Shown: positions 6,791-32,000, counted from the first letter of the stretch. The stretch is 32,000 nt of DNA from Rhodovibrio salinarum DSM 9154 (GCF_000515255.1 NZ_KI911559.1:2211660-2243659), one strand, 5' to 3'. Notes: generated by a model not told the origin, from the sequence alone. Numbers and translations are program-made.

Positions 6791-6865
6791 TGGGGCGTAG
6801 CCAAGCGGTAAGGCACCGGTTTTTGGTACCGGCATTCCCAGGTTCGAATCCTGGCGCCCCAGCCA
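6791..6865 (+). tRNA. tRNA-Gln (anticodon UUG), CCA encoded
   Basis: A cloverleaf can be folded by hand. The acceptor stem is TGGGGCG/CGCCCCA. The anticodon stem is CCGGT/ACCGG around the loop TTTTGGT, giving anticodon TTG. The T-arm is CAGGTTCGAATCCTG. It is nearly colinear with E. coli tRNA-Gln. Confidence 0.92.
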
Positions 6866-7048
6866 CGCCCGAGTAACCCCCTGAAATTCCAAGCTTCTCG
6901 CCAAGCGTTAACCCTCGAGGGCCGCGGTTTTCCGCGATTCCCGGCGATTGTGCCACACGGCTGTGCCACTGGGGTGTGCGCTCGGAACGTGCCACCCGCG
7001 CTGGGAATCCCGGCCAAACCGGTCCTCGTGTGCGCGAGGAGCCACGCC

Positions 7049-10224: not shown

Positions 10225-10778
10225 GCCGGTTGGACGACCTCGCAAAGCGCTACCGCCGCAACATCGAGTTGCCGTGGGACCGGTCAATTGCTGGGGCACA
10301 GCGGGTGATCACGTTGGTCTACGATAAAGACCTCGAACGTGCGCTGCGTGGCCGGATGGCGCTGTTCGAGACGGCTACGCAAAGGACTGGCGCACACTGG
10401 GCGCTGATCGATATCTCCGACTGCTTTCCCAGATGGTTGGCGAAAAACCGTTATTGCCAACATTATTTCGAGTATCCAGAAGATCTTGAGATCAAGCTAG
10501 AATCAAGCTTCGCGAAGTTCGTGTCGCAGGAGATCGAGGCGGGTCTGCAGCGCGATGACGTCGACGAGGACACGGTCGTTGGCCTGCTCGGGGTTGGTAC
10601 GCTGTTCGGTTTTGCACGGGTGTCGATCGTTCTGAACAAAGTCGAACCGGCGATCCGCGGCCGTTTGCTGGTCTTCTTCCCGGGGCAGTACGAAGACAAC
10701 ACTTATCGCCTGTTCAATGCTCGAGACGGATGGAATTATTTGGCCACGCCGATAACGCTTGGGGCCGAGGAGTACTAA
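10221..10778 (+). CDS. brxB: BREX protein BrxB (DUF1788-like)
   Basis: A 185-aa protein in the canonical second position, beginning LAKRYRRNIELPWDRSIAGAQRVITLVYDKDLER. It is translationally coupled on both sides, by ATGA at 10221 and TAATG at 10776-10780. Confidence 0.75.
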   Translation: MSRLDDLAKRYRRNIELPWDRSIAGAQRVITLVYDKDLERALRGRMALFETATQRTGAHWALIDISDCFPRWLAKNRYCQHYFEYPEDLEIKLESSFAKFVSQEIEAGLQRDDVDEDTVVGLLGVGTLFGFARVSIVLNKVEPAIRGRLLVFFPGQYEDNTYRLFNARDGWNYLATPITLGAEEY

Positions 10779-14293: not shown

Positions 14294-17200
14294 ATGCAGA
14301 CGTTGACGAGAGAGCTGCGCCGCACCCTTGAAAACACTGTGCGAGAGGCCCGCGACACGGCGGAGGAGGGGGCCCGGAAAGCGCTCGATCAGCTCGGCGT
14401 GGCGGACAAGGAGGTGCCAGGGCACCTGAACGACGCCCAGCGGAAGCTGCGCAACCGCCTGCGGGCCCACGCCCGGCAGCTTGGCGACCGCCGCCGTCCG
14501 GACCGCAGTCAGGACGTTGGTCGTCTGGTAAGCGAGATCGCCTATGCCCACTGGCACCGGATGCTGTTCGCCCGGTTCCTGGCCGAGGCGGGTCTTCTGA
14601 TCGAGCCCGAGCACGAGCTGCCGCTGTCCTTGGAGGATGTCCGCGAACTGGCGCGCGAGACCGGTGAGGACTGGCTGGACCTCGCCGCGTCCTATGCCGA
14701 GCGGATGCTCCCGCAGATCTTCCGGTCCAACGACCCGGCCCTGGCGGTGACCATGCCGCGCGAGGTGCGCTCGCACCTAGAGGACTTGCTCAAGCAGTTG
14801 CCGGCGACCGTCTTCTGCGCGGATGACAGCCTGGGCTGGGTCTATCAGTTCTGGCAAGCCGACGAGAAGAAGCGGGTGAACGAGAGCCAGGTGAAGATCG
14901 GAGCCGACGAGCTGCCGGCGGTCACCCAGCTATTCACCGAGGACTACATGGTCCTCTTCCTGCTGCACAACACGCTGGGCGCTTGGTGGGCCGGCAAGGT
15001 GCTTGCGGCCGATCCGGAGCTCGCGCGCACGGCCCCGGACGAGGATGCGCTGCGCCAGGCATGTGGGCTGCCGGGGGTTGCGTGGACCTACCTGCGGTTC
15101 GTTCGCGACGAGCCCAATGAAGAGACTGGCGGAGAGGCCGGACCTTGGCGCCCGGCGGCCGGCACCTTCCCGGGCTGGCCGACAGCAGCGAAAGACGTCA
15201 CGCTGCTGGACCCCTGTATGGGCTCGGGCCACTTCCTCGTGTTCGCGCTGCCAATCCTGGTCGCGATGCGGCAGGCGGAAGAGGGGCTGTGTCTTGAGGC
15301 CGCGGTCACGTCGGTCCTGCGAGACAATCTGTTTGGCTTGGAGATCGACCAGCGCTGTACGCAAATCGCTGCGTTCAATCTGGCATTGGCAGCTTGGCGA
15401 ATGATCGAAGAGGTCACTGTTCTGCCGCCGCTCAACCTGGCCTGTTCGGGCTTGTCGATTAGCGTGTCGAAGCAGGAATGGATGAAGTTGGCCGACCGCG
15501 CGGTTCGTCAGGCGGATCCAGCGGCGAAGCAGGACATGTTTGGCAGCGAGCGGACGCTGCTGAACAGCGAGATCGATACGCGCATGCGTTACGGGCTAGA
15601 GCGCATGTATGACACCTTCGCGCAAGCCCCAACGCTTGGAAGTCTGATCGACCCAAGCAAGGTTGGGGAAGACATATTTGCTGCAGATTATGAGTCCTTT
15701 GCGCCTGTGGTGTCGCAAGCATTGGCCGATGGGAGTCACGATGTTGCAGAAATGGCGGTCGCCGCTCACGGATTGGCTAAAGCGGCAGAAATACTGTCGA
15801 AAAAATATGCCATGGTATCAACAAATGTTCCGTTTTTGAATCGCCAGAATCAAGGTAATGATCTTCGCACATTTTCAGAGATACGTTATGATATAGCCAA
15901 AGCGGAGTTGTCTACAACCTTTTATATAAGGGCTTCGGAGCTTACAGAAACGGATGGTGTTGAGGCGATAGTATTGCCGTCTAACTGGATGTACCAACCC
16001 GCTTATAGAAAATTCCGTGAATATGTTCTCGAAAATCATACAATAAAAGCCCTTGCACAATTGGGCTCCGGAGCGTTCGATGGGATCAGTGGAGAAAGGG
16101 TTCAGGCCTCTCTCGTTATCACAAGCATAAACAAGCAAAATCAAAACGGAACGTTTTTGGTATTTGATGCATCAGAAGAAAAGGACTCTTCTGAAAAACG
16201 AACTACATTGCTAAAAGATAATCTGAAGTTTCAGATCCAAAACAAACAAAAAACCAACCCAGATAAACGTATTATTATTTCTCAAATAGATTTTAATGAA
16301 CTATTGTTGGACCATGCGGACAGTTTGACTGGCACACGCACTGGCGATCGGCATCGATTGGTGAGATGTTTTTGGGAGTTGCCACGGAAAAAGACTTCCT
16401 GGGAACCATTTTTCGGTAGTCCAGAGGGGAATAGATATTACTCCGGGCGCGAGTATTTAGTGTATTGGCCCGAGAGCGAAGGCGGTATTCACGAGCTTAA
16501 TGAGAAAGGTATTGCTAGCATTCAGGGAGAAAATGCGTGGGGAAGGTATGGTATTTGCATCCGGCTTATGGGGGATTTGGACGCGACAATTTATACCGGA
16601 GAAATTTTTGATAACAACATTGGGGTTGTCTGGGCGAAAAATAAAGAAGAGCTACCAGCAATTTGGTCATACATTAAATCGGATTCATATACGCAAGCTC
16701 TTCGAAAAATAGACTCCAAGCTTAATCTTACAACATCTACTTTACTGAAGGTTCCTTTTGATTCATCATATTGGCGGGCGGTAGCCGCGGCAAAATATCC
16801 GGATGGTTTGCCGGCGCCGTATTCAGAAGATCCGTCGCAGTGGCTGTTTTGCGGGGATCCGAAGGGGGCGGAAGATCCCTTGCAAGTGGCCGTAGCTCGC
16901 CTTCTCGGTTACCGATGGCCTCGGCAAACAGGCGCCAGCTTTAAGGACTGCCCTGCAATCGATGAGCCGGACGGTCTTGAGAGTCACGCCGATGCAGACG
17001 GGATCGTATGCCTGAATGCCGTTCAGGGAGAGCAGTCTGCTAGCGACCGCCTGCGGAAACTCTTGCGCGATGCTTACGGTGATGCCTGGAGCCCTGGAAG
17101 CCTTGACGAACTGTTAGACACGCATGGGCAGGGCGCGAACGATCTCCATACTTACTTGCGCGACAAGTTCTTCGTCCGGCATCTGAGGTTGTTCCAGCAG

Positions 17201-17879: not shown

Positions 17880-20243
17880 ATGTTGGAACGCGGCATGACT
17901 GAGCAGCCCGCTACGCTCCTGTCGGAACTCGCCCGGCGCTTGGCTCATGCGGCCGAGGTCCCGGAGGGTGAGGTGGAGCCCGCGGCCGTGCTGTGGCCGG
18001 ATTACGAGGCGCAGTGGCAGCCCGTGATCGCGGAATTGCGAGAGCACGTACCGTGGCTGTATCAGCTGGGCGATTACGATCGCGACGGCGTGGCCGAGAC
18101 CCTGACCGGACCGATAATATGGCTGAAGTGCGCGGTGGCGCGGGTGTTGAACGAGGTCTCGCCGCCCGCCGGGACGGTTCCGGTGATCTACCTGCCCGGG
18201 GTCAGCCGGGCGACGCTGCGTGACGCCGCGGGTTGCCCTCAGTGGCTTCAACCGATGGTCGAGCTGTGCTACCGCGGCAACGTCTGGCATCAGCGCAACG
18301 GACGCGACTGGACTGTCCAGGCCTTCCTGGAAGGCGAGCTGCGCCTTGATCTCGCGGGCGACAAGCGCACCCGCAAGGCGTTGACCACGCAGCTCGCCCG
18401 CGTGGCGCGTGAGCCGCTGACCACATTCGAGGGTCGCCGAGTCGACGGCGACCTGCTGCTTAGCCTCGACGTGCGCGATCCGGACGACGAGGTGCTGCGC
18501 TGGATGTGCGACCCCGACGGCTTCAGGAGGGCGTGCGACGGGGCCCATTGGAGCGCGCTGCGGGATCTTTGGCTGAAAGATTTCGCGTTCGATCCGGAGA
18601 CGGACGGGGTCGAGGGCGCCGCGGAGCAGTTGCTGTCACAGACATCCGGGCGGTGGCAGACGGTCTGGCAGCGGTTCTGCGGCAGCCCGAAACAGTACCC
18701 CCAGATGGCGAACGTCCTGAACATGCCGATCAAAGACCTGTTCCCCAACCAACGGAACCGCCATCCGGGCCTGAACGAGAAAGACGAAGGCCGGCTTCAA
18801 ACGGAGCTCGAAAACGCGGTCGACCTTGAGCATACAGACGCCTGTGAAAAGGTGATCGCCCTCCGCAAAGCGCACGCCGAGCGGATGGACGCGCCATGGA
18901 TCGAATTGGGCGAGAGCCCATTGGCCGACGCATTGGAGCCCCTTGGCCGTCTTGCCGAGGGCGCCCGCCAGCGGGTTGGCGGCACCACACTGGCGGCAAT
19001 CGCTGACGCCTACGCGGAAACGCACTGGCAGTGCGATCGCGCGGCGCGAGATGCGCTTTCCAAGGCGCAGGCGCAGCCCGGTAGAGTCACTGGTCGGGTT
19101 ATCGCCCGCGTCGTCCAGGCCCTCTACCGGCCGTGGCTCGACCAGTCGGCGCGTGCCATGCAAGCCCTGCTAGACGGTGGGGCGCATATGGTGGCAGCGC
19201 GGTCCGCCGGCGCTGAGCCGGAACCTGGCACCTGCGTGCTTTTCATCGACGGGCTTCGGTATGATGTCGGTGTGTTGCTGCAAGAGCGGCTGGCATCGGT
19301 GAACTTGCAGGCTTCTCTCGCGCACCGGCTGGCGCCCCTGCCTACAGTGACTGCAACAGCGAAGGCTGTGGCTGCGCCTATCACTCTCGACGGTCTGGGC
19401 GTGGGCGACGACGCGTCGAGCTTCAGTCCGCAGGTCTTGGCCGATGGGCGCCCTTTGGACCAGCATCAGCTACGCAAGCTTCTGACTCGGCAAGGCGTGA
19501 CCTTGGTGGATCGCGATGACCCAAAGGGACCCGAAGGCGCTGGCCGGGTTGGCTGGTGCGAGACCGGGAAACTCGACAGCCTGGGCCACAGCCTCGGCGC
19601 GAGCCTGGTTCGGGAGATTCCAAATAGCGTAGACGAGGCTGTTGGTCTCGTGCAGACCTTGCTGGAGGCCGGGTGGCGAAAGGTGCGGATCGTCACCGAC
19701 CACGGCTGGCTGCTGGTTCCGGAGTCCTTGCAGAAAGTGGATCTCCCGAAGTCGACAGTTGACGACAAATGGGCACGCTGCGCCGCCGTCAAGCCGGGCG
19801 CCCAGCCGGGTGCGACGGTTTATCCGTGGTACTGGGACCCGCACACCAAGATCGCGAGCCCGCCCGGCGCTGGATCGTACTACGGCGGCGTTGCGTACGC
19901 CCACGGCGGCATAAGTCTGCAGGAGTGTGTCGTGCCTGAACTGGAGGTGTCGGCGGGCGAAGTAGCCGTCACAGTCAAGATCGCAAGCCACACCTGGCAA
20001 AATCTACGTTTCCGGGCACAGGTCGAGACGACCGCGTCCAGGCTGAAGGTGGACGTACGCCGCAAGCGGACCGCTCCCGAGACCAGCTTCGTGCAGACCG
20101 TCAAACCGCTCCGGGATAATGGCGAGGCCAGCCTGGTGGTCGCAGACGAGGAAGCGCTTGGCGAAGCAGCCTTTATTGTCGTCCTCGATCCTGACGGTCG
20201 GGTTGTTGCGTCCGAGCAGACCACGATCGGGGGAGACGCATGA
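17880..20243 (+). CDS. pglZ: BREX alkaline-phosphatase-superfamily protein PglZ
   Basis: A 787-aa protein with a PglZ-domain-like core: CVLFIDGLRYDVG, TATAKAV, GKLDSLGH and RIVTDHGWLL. Its stop overlaps the brxL start (ATGA at 20240-20243). An alternative start is the ATG at 17895. Confidence 0.88.
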   Translation: MLERGMTEQPATLLSELARRLAHAAEVPEGEVEPAAVLWPDYEAQWQPVIAELREHVPWLYQLGDYDRDGVAETLTGPIIWLKCAVARVLNEVSPPAGTVPVIYLPGVSRATLRDAAGCPQWLQPMVELCYRGNVWHQRNGRDWTVQAFLEGELRLDLAGDKRTRKALTTQLARVAREPLTTFEGRRVDGDLLLSLDVRDPDDEVLRWMCDPDGFRRACDGAHWSALRDLWLKDFAFDPETDGVEGAAEQLLSQTSGRWQTVWQRFCGSPKQYPQMANVLNMPIKDLFPNQRNRHPGLNEKDEGRLQTELENAVDLEHTDACEKVIALRKAHAERMDAPWIELGESPLADALEPLGRLAEGARQRVGGTTLAAIADAYAETHWQCDRAARDALSKAQAQPGRVTGRVIARVVQALYRPWLDQSARAMQALLDGGAHMVAARSAGAEPEPGTCVLFIDGLRYDVGVLLQERLASVNLQASLAHRLAPLPTVTATAKAVAAPITLDGLGVGDDASSFSPQVLADGRPLDQHQLRKLLTRQGVTLVDRDDPKGPEGAGRVGWCETGKLDSLGHSLGASLVREIPNSVDEAVGLVQTLLEAGWRKVRIVTDHGWLLVPESLQKVDLPKSTVDDKWARCAAVKPGAQPGATVYPWYWDPHTKIASPPGAGSYYGGVAYAHGGISLQECVVPELEVSAGEVAVTVKIASHTWQNLRFRAQVETTASRLKVDVRRKRTAPETSFVQTVKPLRDNGEASLVVADEEALGEAAFIVVLDPDGRVVASEQTTIGGDA

Positions 20244-22303
20244 GCGCCGCACCAGAAACGAAGGAAATGGACCCGCTGGACAGGGCCGCCGCGGACGCCT
20301 TCGACGGGTTTCTGGTGCGCAAGGACCTCGTGCGCAGCTACGCCCAGCAGTACCCGGTGCCGGCCTATGTGGTGGAGTTCCTGCTTGGCCGTTACTGCGC
20401 CAGCGTGGATCCCGAAGAAATCGCCGAAGGCCTGGAAATCGTCGAGAAGCAGCTCAAGGACCGCACCGTCCGGACCGGCAACGAGGAGCTGTTCAAGGCG
20501 CTAGCGCGCGACCGCGGGTCGGTGAAAATCATCGACGTGGTCAAGGCGCGGCTGGACGCCAAGAACGACTGTTACGTGGCCGAGCTTCCGAGCTTGAAAT
20601 TGCGCGAAGTTCGAATCGACGACGAGACGGTCCAGGACAACGAGCGTATCCTCACCGACGGCTTCTACGCCGAGGTGACGCTGTCCTACGACGCTGTCGT
20701 GGCGAAGCAGGCAAACGGGCGCCCGTTCGGGATTGACGCGTTACGCCCAATCCAGATGTCCAAGTCGGATGCGCTCAATGTGCTCGCGCGGGGCCGGCGT
20801 GGTTTCACCACATCGCAATGGATCGACTTCCTGATCCGCTCCACCGGAATTGAACCGGACAGCCTTTCGGAGCGAGCAAAGATCGTCGCACTCCTGCGAA
20901 TGGTCCCGTTCGTCGAGCCCAACTACAACATGGTCGAGTTGGGGCCCCGCGGGACTGGCAAAAGTCACCTGTTCCAGCAGGTCTCGCCGTACGCCCATCT
21001 CATTTCTGGCGGCAAGGCGACCGTCGCTAAGATGTTCGTAAACAACAACAGCGGCGAACGTGGGCTTGTGTGCCGCCACGACGTGGTGTGCTTCGACGAG
21101 GTGGCCGGTATCTCCTTCGACCAGAAGGACGGTGTGAATATCCTGAAAGGCTACATGGCTTCCGGTCAGTTTAGCCGGGGCAAAGAGAACATTCGCGCGG
21201 ACGGCTGCATCGTTATGGTCGGCAACCTCGATCTGGACTTGGAGCAGCAGCAGCGGGTTGGCCATTTGCTCCAGCCTTTGCCGCCCGAGATGCGCCACGA
21301 CACGGCTTTCATGGATCGCATCCATGCTTACGTGCCTGGATGGGATTTTCCCAAGCTGAACCCGTCCGATAACCTGACCTATCACTTTGGCCTAGTGAGC
21401 GACTTCCTCAGCGAGTGCTGGTCGCGACTGCGGAGTGAGAACCGAACGACCGACTTTCAGCGTGCGCACCTGGGCGGCGCCCTGAGCGGCCGCGACATCG
21501 AGGGTGTCCGAAAAACCTTCAACGGACTCGCCAAGCTGCTCTATCCGGATCCCGAAATGGAAATGTCCGACGAGGATCTGGAGTGGGCGCTTCGGATAGC
21601 GCTGGAGTGCCGGCGCCGTGTGAAGGAGCAGCAGAAGCGTGTATTTAAGAGTGAGTTCCGGAACACGCACTTCAGTTACACGCTGGACTTAGACGGTGCC
21701 GAGAATTTCGTTGCGGTGCCTGAACTCTACAGCGACGAAGCGATCGAAGCAGATCCGCTTCCTCCGGGGCAGGTATGGGCTGTGGGCGCAGCCAGCGAGA
21801 CGGAGCCTGGCCTTTATCGGATCGAAGTCACCTGTGGTCCCGGAAGCGGGGTTAAAATACTTAACCAACCGACGCCCCCTGCATTGCGCGAGAGCGTGAA
21901 GGTAGGCGAGCAGAACCTTTATGCCCGCGCGCGCGAGGTCGTTGGGGACCGTAACCCCCGCGAACAGGAATTTTCAGTCCAGATGCGTGCGATGGATAAT
22001 GATCGGACAGGTGCTGGGCTCGGTCTGCCTGTTCTGGTCGCGCTCTGCGGGGCTCTGATTGGTAAGAACAGCCGTGGCGGTACGATCATCGTGGGGTCCC
22101 TGAATCTCGGTGGATCCATTGAAATGGTGCCAAATCCTGTTCGTATCGCCGAACTCGCTGTCGATCGTCAGGCAGATACACTTCTCATGCCGGTTAACGC
22201 GCGGAAGCAACTCATGGACCTGCCTGACGATCTATGGACACGCGTCAGGATTGAATTCTTCAAAGATGCACCGGATGCGGTATTCAAAGCCCTGGAGGCG
22301 TAG
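20240..22303 (+). CDS. brxL: BREX Lon-like protease/ATPase BrxL
   Basis: A 687-aa protein with Walker A in GPRGTGKSHLF and Walker B in VVCFDEV. The C-terminal Lon-protease-like domain contains GAGLGLPVLVALCGALIGK and GSLNLGGSI. It occupies the last position of the operon. Confidence 0.88.
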   Translation: MSAAPETKEMDPLDRAAADAFDGFLVRKDLVRSYAQQYPVPAYVVEFLLGRYCASVDPEEIAEGLEIVEKQLKDRTVRTGNEELFKALARDRGSVKIIDVVKARLDAKNDCYVAELPSLKLREVRIDDETVQDNERILTDGFYAEVTLSYDAVVAKQANGRPFGIDALRPIQMSKSDALNVLARGRRGFTTSQWIDFLIRSTGIEPDSLSERAKIVALLRMVPFVEPNYNMVELGPRGTGKSHLFQQVSPYAHLISGGKATVAKMFVNNNSGERGLVCRHDVVCFDEVAGISFDQKDGVNILKGYMASGQFSRGKENIRADGCIVMVGNLDLDLEQQQRVGHLLQPLPPEMRHDTAFMDRIHAYVPGWDFPKLNPSDNLTYHFGLVSDFLSECWSRLRSENRTTDFQRAHLGGALSGRDIEGVRKTFNGLAKLLYPDPEMEMSDEDLEWALRIALECRRRVKEQQKRVFKSEFRNTHFSYTLDLDGAENFVAVPELYSDEAIEADPLPPGQVWAVGAASETEPGLYRIEVTCGPGSGVKILNQPTPPALRESVKVGEQNLYARAREVVGDRNPREQEFSVQMRAMDNDRTGAGLGLPVLVALCGALIGKNSRGGTIIVGSLNLGGSIEMVPNPVRIAELAVDRQADTLLMPVNARKQLMDLPDDLWTRVRIEFFKDAPDAVFKALEA

Positions 22304-22414: not shown

Positions 22415-24217
22415 TCATCCTGAGTCCACATATTCCGTAGCAGCCTCCCCGGCTCCGGCCGCTTGGCCAAGGACGGTCTGGATACGCTCGCGAAGAGCAT
22501 CGCGGCGTTTTTCGAAGAAGTTATCGAACTCGGTCACGTCCGAAGGTAGGTCGACGAGGTCGTGCCGTGCGCAGTAGCCCTCGAACTGTCGCTCATCGGC
22601 GAAATGCGCCCGGGCCCACACTAACGGCGGTTTGGCCTGCTTCTCCTCGTTGATGTGCCCTTCGAGCAGCTGGAGGTTGGGTAGGCGGTTAACCCGGGCG
22701 CGAAGCTCCGGAATTTCCTCTTCGGAGATGCCGGCGCGTCGCAGGCGGGCAGGCGTGGCCAGCGCCCGCGGGAACACATGATCAATGTGGAACTGGTTCC
22801 GGAGATCGACGAACGGGTAGCACAGGGAGAGAAGCGCGAAGACTCGCCGATCCCCGTAATCCATGTCCAGAAGTTCCTCGATCTCATCCCGCTCGAAGCT
22901 CAGAGACTTGCCGCGCCTAGCCATCACAGTCCCAAGCTCTTGGGCGGGGAACGCATCGGTACCCTCGTTTGTTATCGTCGCCCGCAACGCGGTCAGCAAG
23001 GTATCCAGGCCACTTCCCCAGATCCCCGACGCCTTGAGCAACGAGCGCACCAGCCAGCCCCGGATGGCTTCTCGATCGTCGCGATACGCACTCTGGGTCA
23101 GGAAGCGCTCGTCTGCACCCTTGCGGTAGAGATAGTAGGCGATCGGCAGGATGGCGCTGTGCGCCCGGATGGTCTGGCCGTTGAAGCCGAAGCTCTCGAC
23201 GAGACGCACGGTCAAAAGCAGGGCGTCGCGGATGCCGTCCCAGGCTGCCTCCAGCTTCGCCATGTTGGCGTGGTTGAAGTTCTCGACTTTGAAGCCGACG
23301 CTACCGATGTCGGTCAGCATCAGCCCGGCCTTCAGGATGAGATCGTGGGTGAACGCGAACCGGTCGCCGATCTGGTTCATCTCATCGACGAGCGTATGAA
23401 TCTCGCGCCGGGCGTCCTTGTTTCGCCACTGGGCAACCGCGATGCTGAGCAGCAGGTCTGAGTACGACAGCGCCGTGCCACCACTGTTCATACGGATGAA
23501 TATGTTCAGGACCTTATCGAGGTCCTGGCTCGTCTCCTCGTAGTACGCGATCGATTTTTCGGTATGTATCACACGGTAAAGGCGGTCCAGAATGCGGTAG
23601 GCACGCCGAAGGTTCCGATCGCCAAGTCCCTGATCCTGCAAGGCCTCCATCATGGCCGGGCCGTCTGACATCTTCAGGATGCGGCTCACCGGAAACCACG
23701 CTTGGTTCTCCGGGTCACCTTCCTGGCGCGTCCGCGCCTCGTTGTCGGAGAGGAAGCGGAAGGCGTAGGCTTCCCCTTGTTCGCCTTCGCCCTCTTCAGC
23801 GAGCAGGTTCAGGTGCAGTTGACGCCGTGGGAACGCGTCGGGGTTTGTCCACCATCTCCGCGGCTCTTTCAGCGCGAGCGACCCGCGGAGCGCGATGTTG
23901 AGCGCCGTCATGCGCTGCTGACCATCCAGAACGGCCGTCAGCTGTTGATTCGGCAACAAGCCGAGCTCGGGGCAGTGCGGGTTGTCCCGTTCGTGATAGT
24001 CCCGGACGAAGTCGTAGAATTTGAACTCGTCGCTATTTTCTGGCTCTACTCGCCAGAACAAGAACGTACCAAATGGATAGCCCTGCATTATGCTATCGAA
24101 GAAACGGGAGATTTGCTCTGGTGACCACACAAACTCCCGCTGGATAGCTGGCAGGACGTACTTGTGTTTTTCGATGTGGTCGAGGACCTGGGCGATTGTT
24201 CCGCCAGTCTGATAAAT
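22415..24217 (-). CDS. GmrSD-family type IV restriction enzyme (DUF262 N-terminal, DUF1524/His-Me C-terminal), BrxU-like
   Basis: The DUF262 signature is YVLPAIQREFVWSPEQISRFFDSIMQGYPFG. The C-terminal nuclease motifs are FHIDHVFPRA and NLQLLEGHINEEK. The track ORF starts at the GTG at 24130, which cuts through the signature. The frame is open to the stop at 24233-24235, and the only start-like codon behind the SD (GAGGGAGAGAG) is the ATT at 24217-24215. Confidence 0.85.
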   Translation of the reverse strand: MYQTGGTIAQVLDHIEKHKYVLPAIQREFVWSPEQISRFFDSIMQGYPFGTFLFWRVEPENSDEFKFYDFVRDYHERDNPHCPELGLLPNQQLTAVLDGQQRMTALNIALRGSLALKEPRRWWTNPDAFPRRQLHLNLLAEEGEGEQGEAYAFRFLSDNEARTRQEGDPENQAWFPVSRILKMSDGPAMMEALQDQGLGDRNLRRAYRILDRLYRVIHTEKSIAYYEETSQDLDKVLNIFIRMNSGGTALSYSDLLLSIAVAQWRNKDARREIHTLVDEMNQIGDRFAFTHDLILKAGLMLTDIGSVGFKVENFNHANMAKLEAAWDGIRDALLLTVRLVESFGFNGQTIRAHSAILPIAYYLYRKGADERFLTQSAYRDDREAIRGWLVRSLLKASGIWGSGLDTLLTALRATITNEGTDAFPAQELGTVMARRGKSLSFERDEIEELLDMDYGDRRVFALLSLCYPFVDLRNQFHIDHVFPRALATPARLRRAGISEEEIPELRARVNRLPNLQLLEGHINEEKQAKPPLVWARAHFADERQFEGYCARHDLVDLPSDVTEFDNFFEKRRDALRERIQTVLGQAAGAGEAATEYVDSG

Positions 24218-24383
24218 GGTTCTCTCTCCCTCTTAGCTACGCGCGAAACGCGGCTCGCCGAGTGATCTGTCCAAGGCTTTACACCACAACCTTTACGACT
24301 CCTTCAAGCGGAGCGCACTCGTACACATCTCTGGGTATCGATGCCCATGCCGACCATTCCGTGTTAAAGTTCCGGAGTTTATA

Positions 24384-24419
24384 TCTCTCCCGTCTGACAG
24401 CCATTGCTGACGGGAGAGA
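24384..24419 (+). repeat. Perfect 11-bp inverted repeat overlapping the SD of the decayed regulator gene
   Basis: TCTCTCCCGTC (24384-24394) pairs with GACGGGAGAGA (24409-24419) across a 14-nt spacer. The right arm contains the GGAG that precedes the ATG at 24424. Confidence 0.6.
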
Positions 24420-24423
24420 GACG

Positions 24424-24853
24424 ATGGAGCGGCGAGATCAGGAGCCCGGCGGGCCCAACGCCAACTTCGACGCGGTGACGGCCACGCTTGCCGGCTGCCG
24501 GCAAGAGTTGAGCACGCGGCTGCGGGCCACGATGGCCGCCCGGGGAGGGACGCAGAAAGACCTCGTCGCGGCAATCTGGCTTGCGGAAGGACTTAATCAG
24601 CGTCGACGTGCGCGCCCGCCAGCTGTCGCGCATCCGACGGGATGGCGCGCCGGGTCGCCGCGTTTGGGATGGCCGAGACGGATCTGCTGCCGGGAATCGA
24701 TCGGCGCCGCGCTAGAGACGGGACACGAGACGAGTTCCGGCTTGAGAGCGTCGCGGGTGCCCCCGACCGGGTGCGGACTCATCTTCGCCGGGAACTGCGG
24801 ACCCGGTTGGCGCTGGACATCGCAGCCATGCTGACGGATGAGGCGACCTCGTG
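24424..24853 (+). pseudogene. Probable twice-frameshifted XRE-type HTH regulator remnant
   Basis: High-GC3 coding signal hops between frames. It runs in frame 1 over 24424-~24575 (…LRATMAARGGTQKDLVAAI). It runs in frame 2 over ~24598-24650 (SVDVRARQLSRIRRDG). It runs in frame 3 over 24642-24853 (MARRVAAFGMAETDLLPG…). Joined together these read like a helix-turn-helix core. Confidence 0.35.
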
Positions 24854-25214
24854 ACCAACAGAACTGGAAAAGTGACAAGGCCGGCCGTCGCCAGATTGAT
24901 GATTTCACCGGGAAGTTTCCGCGTTTCTAAATAGTTATCGCTTTTGTAATTCACCAGAACCACTCTATTACCACAAGTGACGTCATGTTTCTTCTGATCA
25001 AAGGGATCTGAGATTTGGCTGGTTGGGAAAAAACCCAGCTCCGTATATTTATGTCCGCCTATGCTTTTGGCGAATGAGCATGCTGGTGGCATAAGGCGGG
25101 CTGGCGGCCCATAGCGGTGCCAGGCAGGCCGGCCAGTGCCGGATCGATCGTTTCGGGCGCCGCCGGATGGTAACCCAGGGAGTTGTGCGACCGGCACCTG
25201 TTTTAGTGCTGACG

Positions 25215-25343
25215 TCAGCGTGCGATCAGGACCTCCGCTTCGATTAGGGTATAGAAGATTTCCCCGTTGAGCGGCTCGTCCCGTAGTATGTCGTTGAAGC
25301 CCTCGCAGAAGCCGTTCTGCCAAGGGGTGCCAGCCCAATTATT
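25215..25343 (-). pseudogene. C-terminal stub of an IS (rve/DDE integrase-core) transposase
   Basis: The minus-strand translation is WAGTPWQNGFCEGFNDILRDEPLNGEIFYTLIEAEVLIAR*. It matches the conserved P-W-Q/E-N-G-x-x-E-x-F-N…LRDE-LN…F block near the C-terminus of IS3-like transposases. No upstream catalytic part is present, and the stop comes before the usual W-x-x-x-YN-x-x-RPH tail. Confidence 0.6.
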
Positions 25344-25465
25344 TCGTGCCGACGTTGAGACGACGGAGCCACATCCGCACGGCTGTATGGGCTCCCGGTT
25401 GCGTACCTCAGGGCTGGTTCGCGTCGGGGCACGACGCGCGGCGTGTAAAACGTTACCTTGTGGCT

Positions 25466-25648
25466 ATGACCGATTCGTTCGACACCACACCCGGAGCCCG
25501 GGCCGGAACGCCTGGCCCGGACCGAACCGGCCCGCGATGCGCGATGTGCGCAAGCGATCGCGGCATCGTCGAGGTCCATGGCCATCTGCAGTGCATCGCC
25601 TGCGGTAACAATGTCGATCCATGCTGCGCCGGCGCGCCGCTCGCCTAG
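25466..25648 (+). CDS. Small zinc-ribbon protein (60 aa), hypothetical
   Basis: The product is MTDSFDTTPGARAGTPGPDRTGPRCAMCASDRGIVEVHGHLQCIACGNNVDPCCAGAPLA. It has CxxC-x14-CxxC spacing and high GC3 (about three quarters of codons by hand count). It ends 60 nt before the first gene of the SMC-like operon on the same strand. Confidence 0.45.
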   Translation: MTDSFDTTPGARAGTPGPDRTGPRCAMCASDRGIVEVHGHLQCIACGNNVDPCCAGAPLA

Positions 25649-25707
25649 CTCGCAGGCCTGTATCGGTAGCGGGCGCGGACGGATCGCCCCCACATCGCGG
25701 GTGTCGA

Positions 25708-27294
25708 ATGACAACACCGACGCACCACGGACAGAAAACCCGGATTCCGATGACGGGCGCCGAGGCGAGCAACGGCACGGACACGCTGTTCGGCAAGCTG
25801 CCGGACCGGTTGTTTCAGCTCTTCGCGGGGCGCAACCGCCACTTCTTCGCCGACCTGCTGGAGTTCCTCGACGACGAGGTGTTCGGCTACGCCGGCGAGG
25901 TCATCCGCAAGACCGACGTGCTCGCTAGCATCGGCGAATTCATCGCCCGGTCGTACCGGGACATCGACCTCTCCGACGAGCCCGTCGAGAGTGACCCCTC
26001 CGCCCGCGAGCGCCGCGACGCGGACCAGAACCGCTACCGGGCGTTCGCCCGCCTGGTGGAGACCGGCTGGCTCACTGTCCACCGCGACCGCTACCGGCCG
26101 ATCGTCGATTTCGACCCGGACGCACGGCTGCTCCTGCAGACGCTTCTGGACATCAAGAACGAGCGCGTCCGGTCGTACGGCGGCGAGGTCGTCAAGGTGA
26201 AAGCGCTGCTCGACAGCGCGATGGCGGACCCGCACACGCAGTCGGAGAACGTGCGCAATGCCGCGCGGTCGGCGCGCGGCTTCATGAACCACCTACGCAC
26301 GGTTACCGGGCGGATGCGGAAGATCGAGGACGCACTGATCCGCCAGACCAACGTGCGCGACCTCTTCGGCGTGTATTTCCAGCAGCACGTCACCGAACAC
26401 GTCATCGCCGACTACAAGCGCTTGAACACGCGCGAGAACCCCTTCCGGTTCCGGATGCAGATCCTGGATACCGTCCAGGACGTCGTGGGCGATCCGGTGT
26501 ACCTGACCCCGTGGGCCGAGGCCTATGCCCGCGAGGGGCGGGCGCGCGACACCGAGGAGGGCGAGGCGCACGTCGTCCAGGACCTGCAGGACATCGTACG
26601 GGTGTTCGAGGCACTAGACGACAATATGCAAATCATCCAGGACACCCAGGCGCGCATCGAGCGGCGGATACGCAACGCCATCCAGTTCCGTGATCGCATA
26701 GAAGACGCGCGCACGGGCAACGTCTTGGCCAGCATGAAGGCGCTGGCACAGGCTGAACTGCCCGACGACGCCCTGGTCCGCGTCCGGCACGGCTTCCTGC
26801 ACACTGAGCTGCCCGTCGGGCCCGAGCATTTGTACCAGCAGGCCCGCAAGCACGGGCCGGCGGAACGCGACGCCATCCGCGACCCGGAGCCGGATCCCGC
26901 GGAGGACGCCTACGAGCAGGCCCTCGAGCTGTTCCAGGCGCGGGCGCAGGTGACCAGCGAGAAGCTCGCCGCCTACGCCGAGGCGGCTCTGGGAGAACGC
27001 GACTGGGTGCGCGGTTCGGAGTTGAGCCCGGTCGGCCTCGACGACTTCTTTGCGTTCGAGCGCCTGAGCGAGATCAACGTCGCCTTCGACGGGCTATTCG
27101 CCGAGCACTACGAGGTCGAGTTCACCGGCGAGCGCGCCCAGAACGTCTGGTTGACGTTCCCCGATTTCATCCTGCGCCGCCGGCGGGTCTACGAACATGC
27201 CACCCCGCCGGCCGGAACGGATCACGTGTCGGCGGTGACGACGCGACCCCCATCTCCTGTCGCGTCCGAGGGAGACCACCAAAGATGGAACTGA
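25708..27294 (+). CDS. jetA: Wadjet/Mks kleisin-like subunit (JetA/MksF position)
   Basis: A ~528-aa helical protein that is the first gene of a four-gene operon. Its stop overlaps the next gene by 10 nt. Size and position fit JetA, and the N-terminal segment LFQLFAGRNRHFFADLLEFLDDEVFG loosely resembles it. The start could be the ATG at 25708 or at 25750. The 25621 start was rejected. Confidence 0.6.
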   Translation: MTTPTHHGQKTRIPMTGAEASNGTDTLFGKLPDRLFQLFAGRNRHFFADLLEFLDDEVFGYAGEVIRKTDVLASIGEFIARSYRDIDLSDEPVESDPSARERRDADQNRYRAFARLVETGWLTVHRDRYRPIVDFDPDARLLLQTLLDIKNERVRSYGGEVVKVKALLDSAMADPHTQSENVRNAARSARGFMNHLRTVTGRMRKIEDALIRQTNVRDLFGVYFQQHVTEHVIADYKRLNTRENPFRFRMQILDTVQDVVGDPVYLTPWAEAYAREGRARDTEEGEAHVVQDLQDIVRVFEALDDNMQIIQDTQARIERRIRNAIQFRDRIEDARTGNVLASMKALAQAELPDDALVRVRHGFLHTELPVGPEHLYQQARKHGPAERDAIRDPEPDPAEDAYEQALELFQARAQVTSEKLAAYAEAALGERDWVRGSELSPVGLDDFFAFERLSEINVAFDGLFAEHYEVEFTGERAQNVWLTFPDFILRRRRVYEHATPPAGTDHVSAVTTRPPSPVASEGDHQRWN

Positions 27295-28166
27295 CCGAGC
27301 TCCGCAACCTCCTCGACGATCCCAAGAATCGCGGCCGCCACGCGACCGGCGAAGACGACATCCGGCAGGCGCTGCAGGCGCTGATGATGCACCAGGTCGT
27401 CTACCGCGATTGGCCGCTTTCCGGCGGCCCGTTCAACACGGTGCACCGCCACCGCAGCTTCTTCGACCGGTATGTCTCGGCGATGGGCGCAGAGCTCGTG
27501 TTCGAGCACCGCTTGGGCATGATCGCCATGCGGCCGGCGACGACGCAGTATGGCTGGAAGCAGACTCGACTGAAGAAGGACGAGACGCTGGTGCTGCTCG
27601 CGCTCCGGTACCTCTACGACGAGGGCATGGCGAACAGCCAGATGACCGAGGACGGGCGGATCGAGACCACGACCGACCATGTTCACGACCTCATCAGCAC
27701 CGGGGTCGGCGAAACGCCGCCAGACGAGAGCCGGCTGATGGAGATCCTGCACGGCTTCCATCGCAAAGGGCTCGTGCGCCTGGGCAAGCGCGACAGCGTC
27801 GAACGGCTCACACCGCTCACCGTGCTGCCCGGCGTGCGGGTCATCGTGTCCGACGTCTATGTGCAGGCCGTGGCGGACTGGATCGACCAGGGTGCGCCCG
27901 AAGACACCGACGGCTTCTTCCAGCACGTAACCCGGCGTGTGGCCGGCAACCAAACGGGCGACGACGAGACGGGCGACGATGAGACGGGCGGCGACGGCGC
28001 AGCGGACGCCGAAGCCGAGGCGGACGCCGGCACGGCACCGGTCTGCGACGACACCGCGACCGGGCCAGACGAGACCGCGGATCCGGCGGTGGAGCCCGGC
28101 ACCGACACCGCGCCGTCGGTCGACGCCGACGCGTCCGGCCAGCAAACTGGGCAAGCCCCGAACTGA
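27285..28166 (+). CDS. jetB: Wadjet/Mks small subunit (JetB/MksE-like, DUF4194-like) with acidic C-terminal tail
   Basis: The ~210-aa core (…LVLLALRYLYDEG…ILHGFHRKGLVRLGKRD…LTVLPGVRVIV…) has the layout expected of DUF4194/MksE. It is followed by a ~75-aa Asp/Glu/Thr/Ala/Gly-rich tail. A GGAGA lies 9 nt before the ATG. Confidence 0.62.
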   Translation: MELTELRNLLDDPKNRGRHATGEDDIRQALQALMMHQVVYRDWPLSGGPFNTVHRHRSFFDRYVSAMGAELVFEHRLGMIAMRPATTQYGWKQTRLKKDETLVLLALRYLYDEGMANSQMTEDGRIETTTDHVHDLISTGVGETPPDESRLMEILHGFHRKGLVRLGKRDSVERLTPLTVLPGVRVIVSDVYVQAVADWIDQGAPEDTDGFFQHVTRRVAGNQTGDDETGDDETGGDGAADAEAEADAGTAPVCDDTATGPDETADPAVEPGTDTAPSVDADASGQQTGQAPN

Positions 28167-28178
28167 CGCGAGGCGTAC

Positions 28179-31100
28179 ATGCACAAGCTCGAGCGCATCT
28201 CCCTGCACAACTGGAGCATGATCGACGCCGAGGACATCGAGATCGACGGCGCGACCTGTTTCATCGGGCCGACCGGGGCGGGCAAGTCTTCCATCGTCGA
28301 CGCCATCCAGACGGTCATCACGGGCAACAACCAGCGCCGGCTCAAACTGAACGCCGCCGTCGAGGGGCGCGACCGGCGCAACGTCCGGGACTACTGCCTG
28401 GGGATGATCGACGACCTGCCGCGGAACCTCGCGCACAAGGACAACCCGGACGGCCTCCGGGCGCACTGCGAGAGCACGCTGGTCCTGACGTTCCGGGACA
28501 CGGAGACGGCCGTGCCGACGGCCGTCGGCCTGATGCTCCGCGCCAACATCGACGACCGCGACGCACGCGAGACGGCGCGCTTCATCGCCGACGGCCTCAG
28601 TTTCCGGCTGAGCGACTACATCACCGAGGGCGAAGACGGTCGGCAGAGGGTTCTCGCCCACAGCGAGACCCTCGACCGGATGGGACGGGGGCGCAACGTC
28701 TACCTGACAACCCACAACACCTCGGCGATCCGCTTCGTCGAGGAGTACCTGCGCACCATGCGCCGGCGCGGCGCCCAGCCGGACCCGGACCAGTTCCTCA
28801 CAGCGTTCAGGAACATGGTGGCTTTCGAACCCGTGGACGATGCCACCAAGTTCGTGCGCCGCTACGTGCTGCCGTACGAGCGCCTCGACGTCGAGCACAT
28901 CCGCAACACGATCGAGCACTGGCGCGGACTCAACCAGCTGGTCGACAACCTCGAGGCGGAGATCGGCGAGCTACACCAGCTGCAGAAGCGCTACAACGCC
29001 TGGGGCGAGGCGACCGTCGAGCAGAACACCCAGGCCTTCTTGGCCGCCCACGCTGAGCGACGCCGGCTGGACGAGGACCTGGCCGCCAAGGATGCCGCCT
29101 ACCGGGAAACGGAGGAGAAGCTGCGCGCCGAGGAGCAGGCGCAGAGCAACCACGAGGCAGCGATCCAGCGCGCCCAGGATGAGCTCGACCAACAGCGGAC
29201 CTACCAGTCCAACAGCCCCGAGGCCGCCAAGCGGAAGAGCGCGGAGGACCGGATCGACCGGGCCCGGCGGGATATCGGCGACGTCCAGGGCCGGATCGCC
29301 CGGCGCGCCCAGGACGTCGGCCGCATCGCGAACCTGGAGCAGCTCAAGGACTACCTGGCGCAGCGCTATGTGCCCGCGATCGAGGCGGCGCGCGCGGTGG
29401 CCAAGGCGGCCACGGGCTCCGACGGGCCGGACGGAACGGAAGTCGACCGGCTCGAACGCCAGGCCTTGGACGTGCTGAACGCCTACGACCCGCTCGACCG
29501 TCAGCGGGAGGCTACAGAGCGCGATCTCGCCGAGGCGAAGCGCGAGCAGGAGACACTGCAGGCCCAGATCGACAGTGCCGGCGGGCAGGCCTTCCTGACC
29601 CCGGAAGTCGCCGAGTTCCGGCGAACGCTCGAGGATCATGGCATCACGGTGACACCGCTGCCCGACATCTGCGAGATCACCGACGAGACCTGGGCGCAAG
29701 CCGCCGAACAGATCCTGGGCCCGCACCGGGAAGCGCTGATTGTCGAGGACGGCCGGACCCGCGAGGCGTTCGACATCCTGTACCGGAACCGCGGGCGGTT
29801 CCACACCTGCCGGTTGGTCGCCGCCGAGCGCCTCCGGCGCAACCCGCCGCGCGTGCGCGACGGCGCCGTGGCCGAGGTCGTGACGACCGACCACGACATC
29901 GCCCGGGCGTTCATCGACCAGCACCTCGGCAACGTCATCCGGGTGACGCACGAGGCAGAGCTGGAACGCCACGAGCGCGCCATCATGCCCAATGGCAAGA
30001 TGCAGGGCGGCGCGGCGCTCCGGGTCTACAAGGATCTTCAGCCCATCCTGGGCAAGACCGCCCAGGAGAACGCCTTGCGGGCGGCGCGGGAGCGCGTGGA
30101 CACGTTGTCGGGCCGGATCTACACGCTCCGTCGCACCCAGAAGCTGCTCAAGAGCGGTATCAACACCCTCACCCGCCTGGCGGACGATCCGGAGAATCCC
30201 GGCGCAGGCGCGGCACCTCAGCTGGCGGATCTACTGCGCGAGCTGGATACGGCAGAGGGCGAGCTGAGTTCCGCCCAGACCGCCTATGACAACGTCGACG
30301 ACCCCGAGCTCCGCCGTATCGGCGAGGAGATCAAGCGTCTTCAGAAGGAGATCAAGGCCTACCAGGCCGAGCTGGAGGAGACGGTCAAGCCCAACATCAA
30401 GGGCTACTACAAGACCCTCAACCAGCTGTCGAGCGAACGCGGCCGCTTCGAGGAACAGCGCAGCAAGCGGCTCGAACAGGAGCAGACAGCCGAGGCCAAG
30501 GAGAGCGAGCTGGCGAAACTGATCCATCAGCTCGAGGCGCCGGAGACGATTGCGCAGGCGCGCCAGCTGCTGGAAACGCGGCTGTTCCACCACCCGGGTC
30601 AGGAGCGGGCGACGCTCGCCACTGTCCGGGACGAGGCCGACCGGCAGGCCGACGACGCGCGCACCCGGATCAAGCAACGCCGCGACCGTGCGGACCGGGA
30701 TTTCCGGAAGTATTACGAGACATACCGCGGCAACAACCCGCTGGAGACGGACTACGACGATCCCGTCGAACGGCTCGTCTGGATCATCCGGGAGGCCCAC
30801 AAGCTGGAGCGCGACGAGCTCAACCCTTACCGGGAGCAGGTGCGCGAGGCGCGTGCGGAGATCGAGCGCGCCCTACGCGAAGACCTACTGACCAAGCTGG
30901 CGGACAAGTTCCAGAAGGTGGAGAGCCAGAAAAACGTCCTGAACCGGCGCCTGCGCAAGCGGACGTTCAACGGCATGACCTACTGGTTCAGCCACGCCAC
31001 CGACCCGAACCTCTCCAAGCTGTACCATATCGCCAAGCGCATCGCGGAACAGCCCGACCGCGGGGCGAGCATCGTCGACAACACCGAGCACGACCCTGAA

Positions 31101-31742
31101 ATCGCCGAGGCTATGGAGCAGGTCGAGGCAATCCTCAGCCGGGACGAGGACACCTCGTACCTGGAGGACTACCGCAACTACTTCACCTTCGAGCTCTGGA
31201 TGCAGCCCGAGCACGGCGGCGATCCGATCCCGTGGAGCAAGCGCAGCCAGACCGCCTCGGGCGGTCAGCGGCAGGCGCCTTTCTACGTCGCCATCGCGGC
31301 CTCCATGGCGGCGGCATACTACCCGCACAGCCGCCAGGACCGCCCCGAGGGCATGGGGCTCGTGCTGTTCGACGAGGCGTTCAACCGCTTGGACGTGCCC
31401 ACGACGCAGAAACTGATGAGCTTCTTCGAGAGCCTGAGCCTGCAGGTCCTCGCCGCCGCGCCCGAAGCCCAGCGGCCGACCTTCTTGGAGGTTGCCGATA
31501 CACTGGTCTCCGTGAACAAGCGGCCGAACACCGCGCAGATGCGCATCCAGTCGAAAGGGGTGCAGCAGCACGCGCGCGACAGCATCGCGCGGGCCAACCC
31601 GCAGCATCTCGGTGTCGAGGGCTTCCGTCAGCCACAGGATGGCGCCACGCAGGCCTCGACCGACGACGCCCGGGTGGATGAGGCCGGCGAGCCGGCCGGA
31701 ACAGCCGATCGGGCCGCGCCCCAGGACACCGCCGCGGAGTAG
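28179..31742 (+). CDS. jetC: SMC-like ABC ATPase (JetC/MksB-like)
   Basis: A 1187-aa protein. The N-terminal head carries Walker A in FIGPTGAGKSSIVDAIQ, followed by RNVRDYCLG. A ~700-aa Glu/Arg/Gln/Leu-rich coiled-coil middle follows. The C-terminal head carries the signature-like SGGQRQAPFYVAIAASM and Walker B/D-loop LVLFDEAFNRLD. Confidence 0.85.
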   Translation: MHKLERISLHNWSMIDAEDIEIDGATCFIGPTGAGKSSIVDAIQTVITGNNQRRLKLNAAVEGRDRRNVRDYCLGMIDDLPRNLAHKDNPDGLRAHCESTLVLTFRDTETAVPTAVGLMLRANIDDRDARETARFIADGLSFRLSDYITEGEDGRQRVLAHSETLDRMGRGRNVYLTTHNTSAIRFVEEYLRTMRRRGAQPDPDQFLTAFRNMVAFEPVDDATKFVRRYVLPYERLDVEHIRNTIEHWRGLNQLVDNLEAEIGELHQLQKRYNAWGEATVEQNTQAFLAAHAERRRLDEDLAAKDAAYRETEEKLRAEEQAQSNHEAAIQRAQDELDQQRTYQSNSPEAAKRKSAEDRIDRARRDIGDVQGRIARRAQDVGRIANLEQLKDYLAQRYVPAIEAARAVAKAATGSDGPDGTEVDRLERQALDVLNAYDPLDRQREATERDLAEAKREQETLQAQIDSAGGQAFLTPEVAEFRRTLEDHGITVTPLPDICEITDETWAQAAEQILGPHREALIVEDGRTREAFDILYRNRGRFHTCRLVAAERLRRNPPRVRDGAVAEVVTTDHDIARAFIDQHLGNVIRVTHEAELERHERAIMPNGKMQGGAALRVYKDLQPILGKTAQENALRAARERVDTLSGRIYTLRRTQKLLKSGINTLTRLADDPENPGAGAAPQLADLLRELDTAEGELSSAQTAYDNVDDPELRRIGEEIKRLQKEIKAYQAELEETVKPNIKGYYKTLNQLSSERGRFEEQRSKRLEQEQTAEAKESELAKLIHQLEAPETIAQARQLLETRLFHHPGQERATLATVRDEADRQADDARTRIKQRRDRADRDFRKYYETYRGNNPLETDYDDPVERLVWIIREAHKLERDELNPYREQVREARAEIERALREDLLTKLADKFQKVESQKNVLNRRLRKRTFNGMTYWFSHATDPNLSKLYHIAKRIAEQPDRGASIVDNTEHDPEIAEAMEQVEAILSRDEDTSYLEDYRNYFTFELWMQPEHGGDPIPWSKRSQTASGGQRQAPFYVAIAASMAAAYYPHSRQDRPEGMGLVLFDEAFNRLDVPTTQKLMSFFESLSLQVLAAAPEAQRPTFLEVADTLVSVNKRPNTAQMRIQSKGVQQHARDSIARANPQHLGVEGFRQPQDGATQASTDDARVDEAGEPAGTADRAAPQDTAAE

Positions 31743-31744
31743 TC

Positions 31745-32000
31745 ATGTCCGCCAAGGCCGCCCGCGAAACCCTGAACAAGCTGGTCGACCTCGCGGAACG
31801 CAAGGCTCCGGAGGCGCGCACGCGCGCCATCCAGCAGCGCCTGCCCGAACGCTTCGAGAGCGCGGATGCCCGCGAGGCATTCGAGAGCCTGATGCGCCAG
31901 GCGCACGACCTCGGCGCGGTGACCGTGACCCGTCGCAAAGGCGAAGCCGCGCACTTGCTCGACCGCGTCTACCTGCGCGATCTCGACCGGCTCTACGCGC
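31745..32000 (+). CDS. Partial CDS, fourth gene of the SMC-like operon (JetD/MksG position)
   Basis: The ATG at 31745 lies 6 nt after GGAG and 2 nt after the jetC stop. The frame is open with high GC3 to the window edge (MSAKAARETLNKLVDLAERKAPEARTRAIQQ…). The assignment rests on position only, and no Toprim motif is visible yet. Confidence 0.4.
   Translation, partial: MSAKAARETLNKLVDLAERKAPEARTRAIQQRLPERFESADAREAFESLMRQAHDLGAVTVTRRKGEAAHLLDRVYLRDLDRLYA

Follow-up and report, generated by a model that had tools for sequence, protein, structure and literature searches.

We analyzed a 32,000-nt stretch of the Rhodovibrio salinarum DSM 9154 genome (GCF_000515255.1, NZ_KI911559.1:2211660-2243659; hereafter the window, with positions counted from its first nucleotide) and found that its right end very probably carries an intact type I Wadjet (JetABCD, also MksBEFG) anti-plasmid system, whose nuclease most likely cuts small circular plasmids. 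The analysis shows the gene content and order of the locus, the assignment of its domains and folds and the conservation of its catalytic motifs.

The system consists of four tightly packed, co-directional genes on the + strand, which extend from 25708 or 25750 to the end of the window at 32000 and beyond (open reading frame (ORF) listing and raw sequence). The first gene, jetA (25750..27294), encodes the kleisin subunit; it ends with a stop codon at 27294 and has candidate ATG starts at 25621, 25708 and 25750 in the ORF listing, the protein being 514 amino acids (aa) long if translated from 25750 and 528 aa long if translated from 25708. It overlaps by 10 nt with jetB (27285..28166, 293 aa), encoding the KITE subunit, which is followed after a 12-nt gap by jetC (28179..31742, 1187 aa), encoding the SMC-type ABC ATPase. 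The first 85 codons of jetD (31745..32000) complete the window, while the remaining 911 nt including the stop codon lie outside it. An exact look-up with the JetC protein identified the source contig NRRE01000027.1 (237 kb; NCBI GCA_016583505.1), and over the last 1001 nt of the window the sequence agrees completely (100%) with the locus fetched from this contig (L001), the window position being the L001 position plus 18178. On the source contig, the whole jetD gene occupies L001:13567-14733 and encodes 388 aa.

An earlier first-pass annotation, made from the sequence alone, had described four packed co-directional genes here, the last one starting 2 nt past the ATPase stop codon and running out of the window. 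All four are present in the ORF listing, and the start of the fourth was located at ATG 31745. The 528-aa first gene of that annotation also exists as an ORF, but its start at 25708 is probably 14 codons early. The start at ATG 25750 is preferred because the alignment of JetA homologues begins at about residue 27 of the 528-aa version and because the gene is called from ATG 25750 on the source contig, with a product of 514 aa.

Each of the four proteins was recognized by profiles of the corresponding Wadjet subunit. JetA matched the Pfam JetA profile PF18982 with the E-value of 5.6e-77 (259.6 bits at a cut-off of 26.2; profile positions 14-434 of 434) and the PADLOC profile JetA1 (PDLC00466) with the E-value of 4.9e-145, the latter being aligned nearly end to end. 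Its family is large: at E<=1e-3, the homologues amount to 488 representatives of clusters at 50% identity, 83 of them at E<=1e-30. JetB is a single KITE protein of ordinary core size: Pfam DUF4194 was matched at 1e-17 (64.8 bits, cut-off 32.7) by a core comprising approximately residues 3-204, and PADLOC JetB1 (PDLC00475) at 1e-58, covering profile positions 2-205 of 210.

JetC contains the Walker A motif GPTGAGKSS (residues 30-38), the signature SGGQRQ (1027-1032) and the stretch LVLFDEAF (1061-1068) with the Walker B residues DE at 1065-1066; these three motifs had been quoted in the first-pass annotation, and their residues are invariant across four aligned JetC sequences. Stretches rich in E, K, R, Q, A and L at approximately residues 250-470 and 650-920, which look like coiled-coil arms, flank a hinge-like middle part, and the match to SMC_hinge was marginal (residues 493-589, 22.0 bits vs. 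the cut-off of 22.5). The protein matched PADLOC JetC1 (PDLC00506) over residues 1-1153 with the E-value of 2.5e-258, as well as Pfam AAA_29 and SbcC_Walker_B, each above the cut-off. The similarity to the head of Pseudomonas aeruginosa JetC (PDB 8dk1_C) was weak (5.3e-7), with Walker A, signature and Walker B aligned. Chance cannot account for profile E-values that go down to 2.5e-258.

The full-length JetD contains three Pfam domains scoring above the curated cut-offs, namely DUF3322, JetD_C (PF09983) and DUF2399, and matched PADLOC JetD1 over its full length at 9.9e-88. The database search yielded 173 homologues, several of which, from Afipia, Bradyrhizobium, Falsiroseomonas, Telmatospirillum and Inquilinus, are named 'Wadjet anti-phage system protein JetD domain-containing protein' at NCBI. 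In a 44-sequence alignment, residues E255 (in TIENLASF), D304 and D306 (both in HWGDID) are invariant and form the Glu plus DxD pattern of Toprim domains. Judged by sequence, these residues correspond in kind to E248 of Escherichia coli JetD, which was experimentally demonstrated in the literature to be required for cleavage, and to E236/D279 of Corynebacterium glutamicum MksG, which bind Mg2+ and are likewise required for cleavage (Weiss et al. 2023, PMC10123090). The AlphaFold2 model of JetD, built from 44 aligned sequences, has a mean predicted local distance difference test (pLDDT) value of 94.8 and a predicted TM-score (pTM) of 0.86, and its top PDB matches found by Foldseek were MksG (8b7f_A, 7.9e-11), P. 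aeruginosa JetD (7til_A, 2.4e-9) and Topo VI-A (1d3y, 1.9e-4). By sequence profile, predicted fold and invariant acidic residues, JetD carries a Toprim domain. The N-terminus of JetD also resembled the Phd/YefM antitoxin (6.2e-5, below the cut-off); this match is spurious, the full protein being JetD end to end.

By its profile matches, the system is of type I. According to the PADLOC descriptions, JetA of the DUF5716/PF18982 kind characterizes type I, DUF2397 type II and DUF3375 type III; Pfam DUF3375 and DUF2397 had no match in the locus proteins at E<=1. All 11 PADLOC matches of JetA and all 16 of JetB were to type I models, with no type II or type III model, JetA2 and JetA3 included, at E<=1. 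The assignment to type I follows from this exclusive matching of the first two genes together with the scores of the other two, which lie far above those of the type II and III models (JetC1 at 2.5e-258 vs. the best JetC2 match at 3.7e-20; JetD1 at 9.9e-88 vs. JetD2 at 2.3e-12 and JetD3 at 9.1e-7). One could also think of a Wadjet of type II, type III or a new, fourth kind, since PADLOC describes the JetB (DUF4194) and JetD (DUF2220) families as common to types I and III, JetD does match JetD2 and JetD3, and PDB sequence searches provide no link to solved type I structures. Given the end-to-end alignments with the type I models and the JetB with a single KITE, rather than the tandem KITE described in the literature for type II, we consider this very unlikely.

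Relatives of the locus are mostly Alphaproteobacteria. Three related loci (L005, L006 and L007/L008), from two metagenomic contigs and Afipia birgiae, retain the order jetA-jetB-jetC-jetD and encode JetA of 481-520 aa, JetB of 243-272 aa, JetC of 1154-1183 aa and JetD of 388-392 aa; the identity of JetC to relatives with the same four-gene order is 36-70%. The scan of genome contigs found one relative, a metagenome-assembled genome of an uncultured Limimonas sp. Relatives located on large plasmids or chromids are already annotated at NCBI as Wadjet JetA family proteins. The NCBIfam search of the locus proteins found no model naming JetA, JetB or JetD. As PADLOC represents each subunit by many separate type I models, one of which is matched very well by every protein of the locus, the distance from the solved examples is, at the level of sequence, ordinary diversity within type I.

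These results bear on several statements of the first-pass annotation. It had interpreted the operon as Wadjet-type, left the subtype open and proposed the retrieval of gene 4 and searches with four profiles, and the locus agrees with all of them: JetA is recognized by Pfam PF18982 and PADLOC JetA1, DUF3375 itself having no match at E<=1; JetB by DUF4194 (1e-17) and JetB1 (1e-58); the SbcC-like JetC by JetC1 (2.5e-258) and SbcC_Walker_B; and the retrieved gene 4 carries DUF3322 and DUF2220/DUF2399 with the Toprim domain. The annotation had named a fourth gene lacking Toprim, along with failure of the first two genes in JetA and JetB profiles, as the outcome speaking against Wadjet, and the opposite was found. 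Its failure to recognize the N-termini is explained by the distance of these proteins from the solved examples. Its suggestion of a divergent variant goes further than the data, as type I profiles fit end to end and the relatives keep the operon, so that anything beyond ordinary divergence finds little support.

Two other interpretations start from the ATPase. According to the first, the genes encode a chromosome-organizing condensin similar to MksBEF or MukBEF, with no role in defence and with an incidental fourth gene. The SMC-kleisin-KITE plan is indeed common to JetABC and MksBEF/MukBEF (review), and JetC weakly matches SMC_prok_B (1.7e-14, 52.6 bits vs. the cut-off of 567). However, a full-length gene of the JetD Toprim nuclease, a subunit exclusive to Wadjet complexes according to the literature, begins 2 nt after jetC and stays attached to it in the relatives, JetA matches JetA1 models only, and the locus is situated in a defence island beside BREX (bacteriophage exclusion) and GmrSD genes, downstream of a tRNA gene and an integrase. 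This makes a condensin extremely unlikely. The second interpretation is a different defence system with an SMC-like ATPase, of the Lamassu LmuB type or with a Rad50/SbcC-like module, suggested by weak matches of JetC to LmuB (2.6e-8), AriA, GajA, Old and Rad50 through the common ABC ATPase head. These matches are local, covering the P-loop or short coiled-coil segments, and fall 250 orders of magnitude below JetC1, whereas the partner genes are JetA, JetB and JetD rather than LmuA and LmuC; the probability of such a system seems close to negligible. Lamassu membership in particular, for which the only signals were weak local LmuB matches (2.6e-8 and 1.6e-6) next to neighbours that are JetA, JetB and JetD, was rejected.

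Several observations weigh against an intact type I Wadjet of the known kind. Searches of PDB chains with phmmer gave no match for JetA, JetB or JetD, and neither did the search of PDB chains with a 44-sequence JetD profile; as the sequence searches thus found nothing, or the JetC head weakly, the link to solved structures was made through the predicted fold of JetD. Even there, the identity to MksG and P. aeruginosa JetD is only 18-19% and the whole-chain TM-scores are 0.34-0.40. The N-terminal IFDR motif of JetB binds the aCAP domain of JetD in the type I systems of E. coli and P. aeruginosa (literature); the N-terminus of JetB studied here has no literal IFDR, the clade keeping ELxELRxLLD at residues 2-12 instead. 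Because of the low similarity to the solved proteins, neither IFDR nor the residues of the JetC-JetD contact can be transferred to this locus. Expression is a further point: a remnant of an insertion sequence (IS) lies directly upstream of jetA, and simple consensus scans for a promoter upstream of jetA and for a terminator downstream of jetD found none above the shuffled expectation.

The latter points could be explained by a decaying or silent copy of the system, in which the IS insertion has broken the regulation and the function is lost. The IS3-family remnant is located 0.3-0.6 kb upstream of jetA (25076..25383), and there is no sigma-70-like promoter in 24100..25800 by a crude consensus scan in a genome with 65% GC. 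Such a scan carries little weight, and all four reading frames are intact and full-length relative to the profiles, with the catalytic and ATPase motifs kept. We therefore regard the loss of function as unlikely and retain an intact type I Wadjet as the preferred explanation.

If so, the system may act in the same way as the characterized ones from E. coli GF4-3, P. aeruginosa PA14 and C. glutamicum, from which, by homology, we infer how the complex assembles, extrudes loops, senses size and cleaves DNA. JetC (SMC ATPase), JetA (kleisin) and JetB (KITE) would form a dimer of SMC motor units, which would be loaded on DNA and drive its extrusion with ATP. If the DNA is a small closed circle, both motors would consume all available DNA and stall at a short, sharply bent leftover segment. 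This segment would be bound and kinked by a JetD dimer, composed of the CAP-like arm and the Toprim domain, and the Mg2+-binding acidic site of JetD (E255, D304 and D306) would cut both strands, linearizing the plasmid. The chromosome and linear DNA would escape because they cannot be extruded completely.

Of the systems with which the locus can be compared, the type I Wadjet of E. coli GF4-3 (Liu et al. 2022; Roisne-Hamelin et al. 2023; bioRxiv 10.1101/2022.10.04.510915 and 10.1101/2023.11.03.565488) shares with it the order jetA-jetB-jetC-jetD, the set of a kleisin, a single KITE, an SMC ATPase and a nuclease with aCAP and Toprim domains, the catalytic Glu of Toprim (E248 there and E255 here) and the membership in type I profiles; it differs from our locus, in which JetB and JetC have acidic low-complexity C-terminal tails and JetB has no literal IFDR. 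P. aeruginosa PA14 JetABCD (Deep et al. 2022; 7til, 8dk1) has the JetD fold in common over the full length (2.4e-9, 392 aligned columns), whereas the JetD identity is 18% and the whole-chain TM-score is 0.39-0.40; one reason for the low score may be that the two domains are placed differently with respect to each other. C. glutamicum MksG (Weiss et al. 2023, PMC10123090; 8b7f) comes closest to JetD in structure (7.9e-11), differing by its 19% identity and by its actinobacterial host, the relatives of our locus being mostly alphaproteobacterial. The MukBEF/MksBEF condensins have a similar SMC-kleisin-KITE architecture and dimer-of-dimers organization (review), but they have no Toprim nuclease partner and organize chromosomes rather than cleave plasmids.

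The C-terminal tail of JetB comprises approximately residues 205-293 (27897..28163), that is, about 90 aa of acidic low-complexity sequence with 23 D/E vs. 2 K/R, and includes a GDDETGDDETGGDG repeat. Its length is different in every relative examined and is the largest at the present locus (JetB being 243-293 aa long overall), and the tail resembles a variable disordered appendage. JetC ends with a shorter tail of the same acidic low-complexity kind (approximately residues 1141-1187, about 45 aa; 31599..31739). In this mostly alphaproteobacterial subclade of type I, the tails might serve as DNA-mimicking elements that are autoinhibitory or recruit partners, or JetB might contact JetD via an N-terminal motif other than IFDR; we consider either role improbable. 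If one of them were true, the clade would represent a sub-variant of type I that differs in mechanism, the activation of its nuclease being controlled in another way.

The locus adds a further example of an anti-plasmid system that is already well described, and nothing points to a new principle. Wadjet is found in about 5-10% of bacterial genomes (review) or in about 5% of species according to another source, and relatives of the present proteins already carry the names of Wadjet JetA and JetD proteins at NCBI. On this identification, transformation of the host with small circular plasmids is predicted to be difficult. The analysis also documents that a type I BREX, a GmrSD-type enzyme and a type I Wadjet occur together in a compact defence island at tRNA-Gln. 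As the clade is distant in sequence from every solved Wadjet protein, it offers a sensible further sampling point for comparative structural work.

The genomic surroundings are those of a tRNA-linked defence island and fit a defensive role. The left part of the window contains housekeeping-type genes (an SLT transglycosylase, a TPR protein and a GHMP kinase), followed by tRNA-Gln(ttg) at 6791..6865, the sole Rfam match in the window, and by a 705-aa ORF at 6950..9067 with DUF6538 and a weak match to Phage_integrase (tyrosine integrase; 1.2e-5, below the cut-off). With housekeeping genes on the left and defence genes on the right, the tRNA gene and the integrase-like ORF seem to mark the end at which a genomic island integrated. 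Next to them is a complete type I BREX system identified by PADLOC, consisting of BrxA (starting at 9430), BrxB (10221), BrxC (10730), PglX (14294), PglZ (17880) and BrxL (20240..22303), with E-values of 1.3e-73 for BrxA and 6.8e-70 for BrxB and those for BrxC and PglX reported as 0. With the listed start at 10730, BrxC would share 49 nt with BrxB; its true start probably lies about 20 codons further downstream. Inside pglX, the GC content drops to 0.456 at 16001..17000, compared with about 0.58-0.70 around, and PglX has about 45 extra residues in its alignment with the PADLOC model; the low-GC stretch may be a target-recognition region that the methyltransferase gene acquired by horizontal exchange.

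Between BREX and Wadjet, a GmrSD-family type IV restriction-like gene is encoded on the - strand at 22415..24130, probably extending to 24217 (Pfam GmrSD_N; PADLOC HEC-05, 7.2e-212). The listed ORF has 571 aa, and the gene as called on the source contig has 600 aa; as the model alignment starts only at profile position 50, the true start should be upstream of that of the 571-aa ORF. The gene product is presumably similar to the accessory enzymes of the BrxU type that accompany BREX. It is separated from jetA by a 1.6-kb spacer holding the IS remnant, which is a fragment of rve_3 of the IS3 family on the - strand. A 100-codon ORF immediately upstream of jetA, at 25346..25648 (+), with a zinc-ribbon-like CxxC...CxxC pattern was also considered; it has no counterpart in related Wadjet loci and is uncalled on the source contig, and hence is probably not a gene.

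Downstream of jetD, the - strand encodes a divergent AddA/AddB-like helicase-nuclease pair (L001 15082..21314, equivalent to window positions 33260..39492), comprising a protein of 1125 aa with UvrD-helicase/UvrD_C domains and a protein of 952 aa with a PD-(D/E)XK nuclease domain. The former is similar to alphaproteobacterial AddA (269 bits vs. the equivalog cut-off of 861), while the profile search found no AddB match for the latter; the pair is either a divergent second AddAB or an uncharacterized defence-island module. About 8 kb downstream of jetD there is a full IS3-family transposase gene (L001 21651..22819), to the 3' part of which the IS remnant upstream of jetA is 78% identical in inverted orientation. 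These inverted related IS copies, which bracket jetABCD and the AddAB-like pair, hint at past mobilization of the whole segment as a module.

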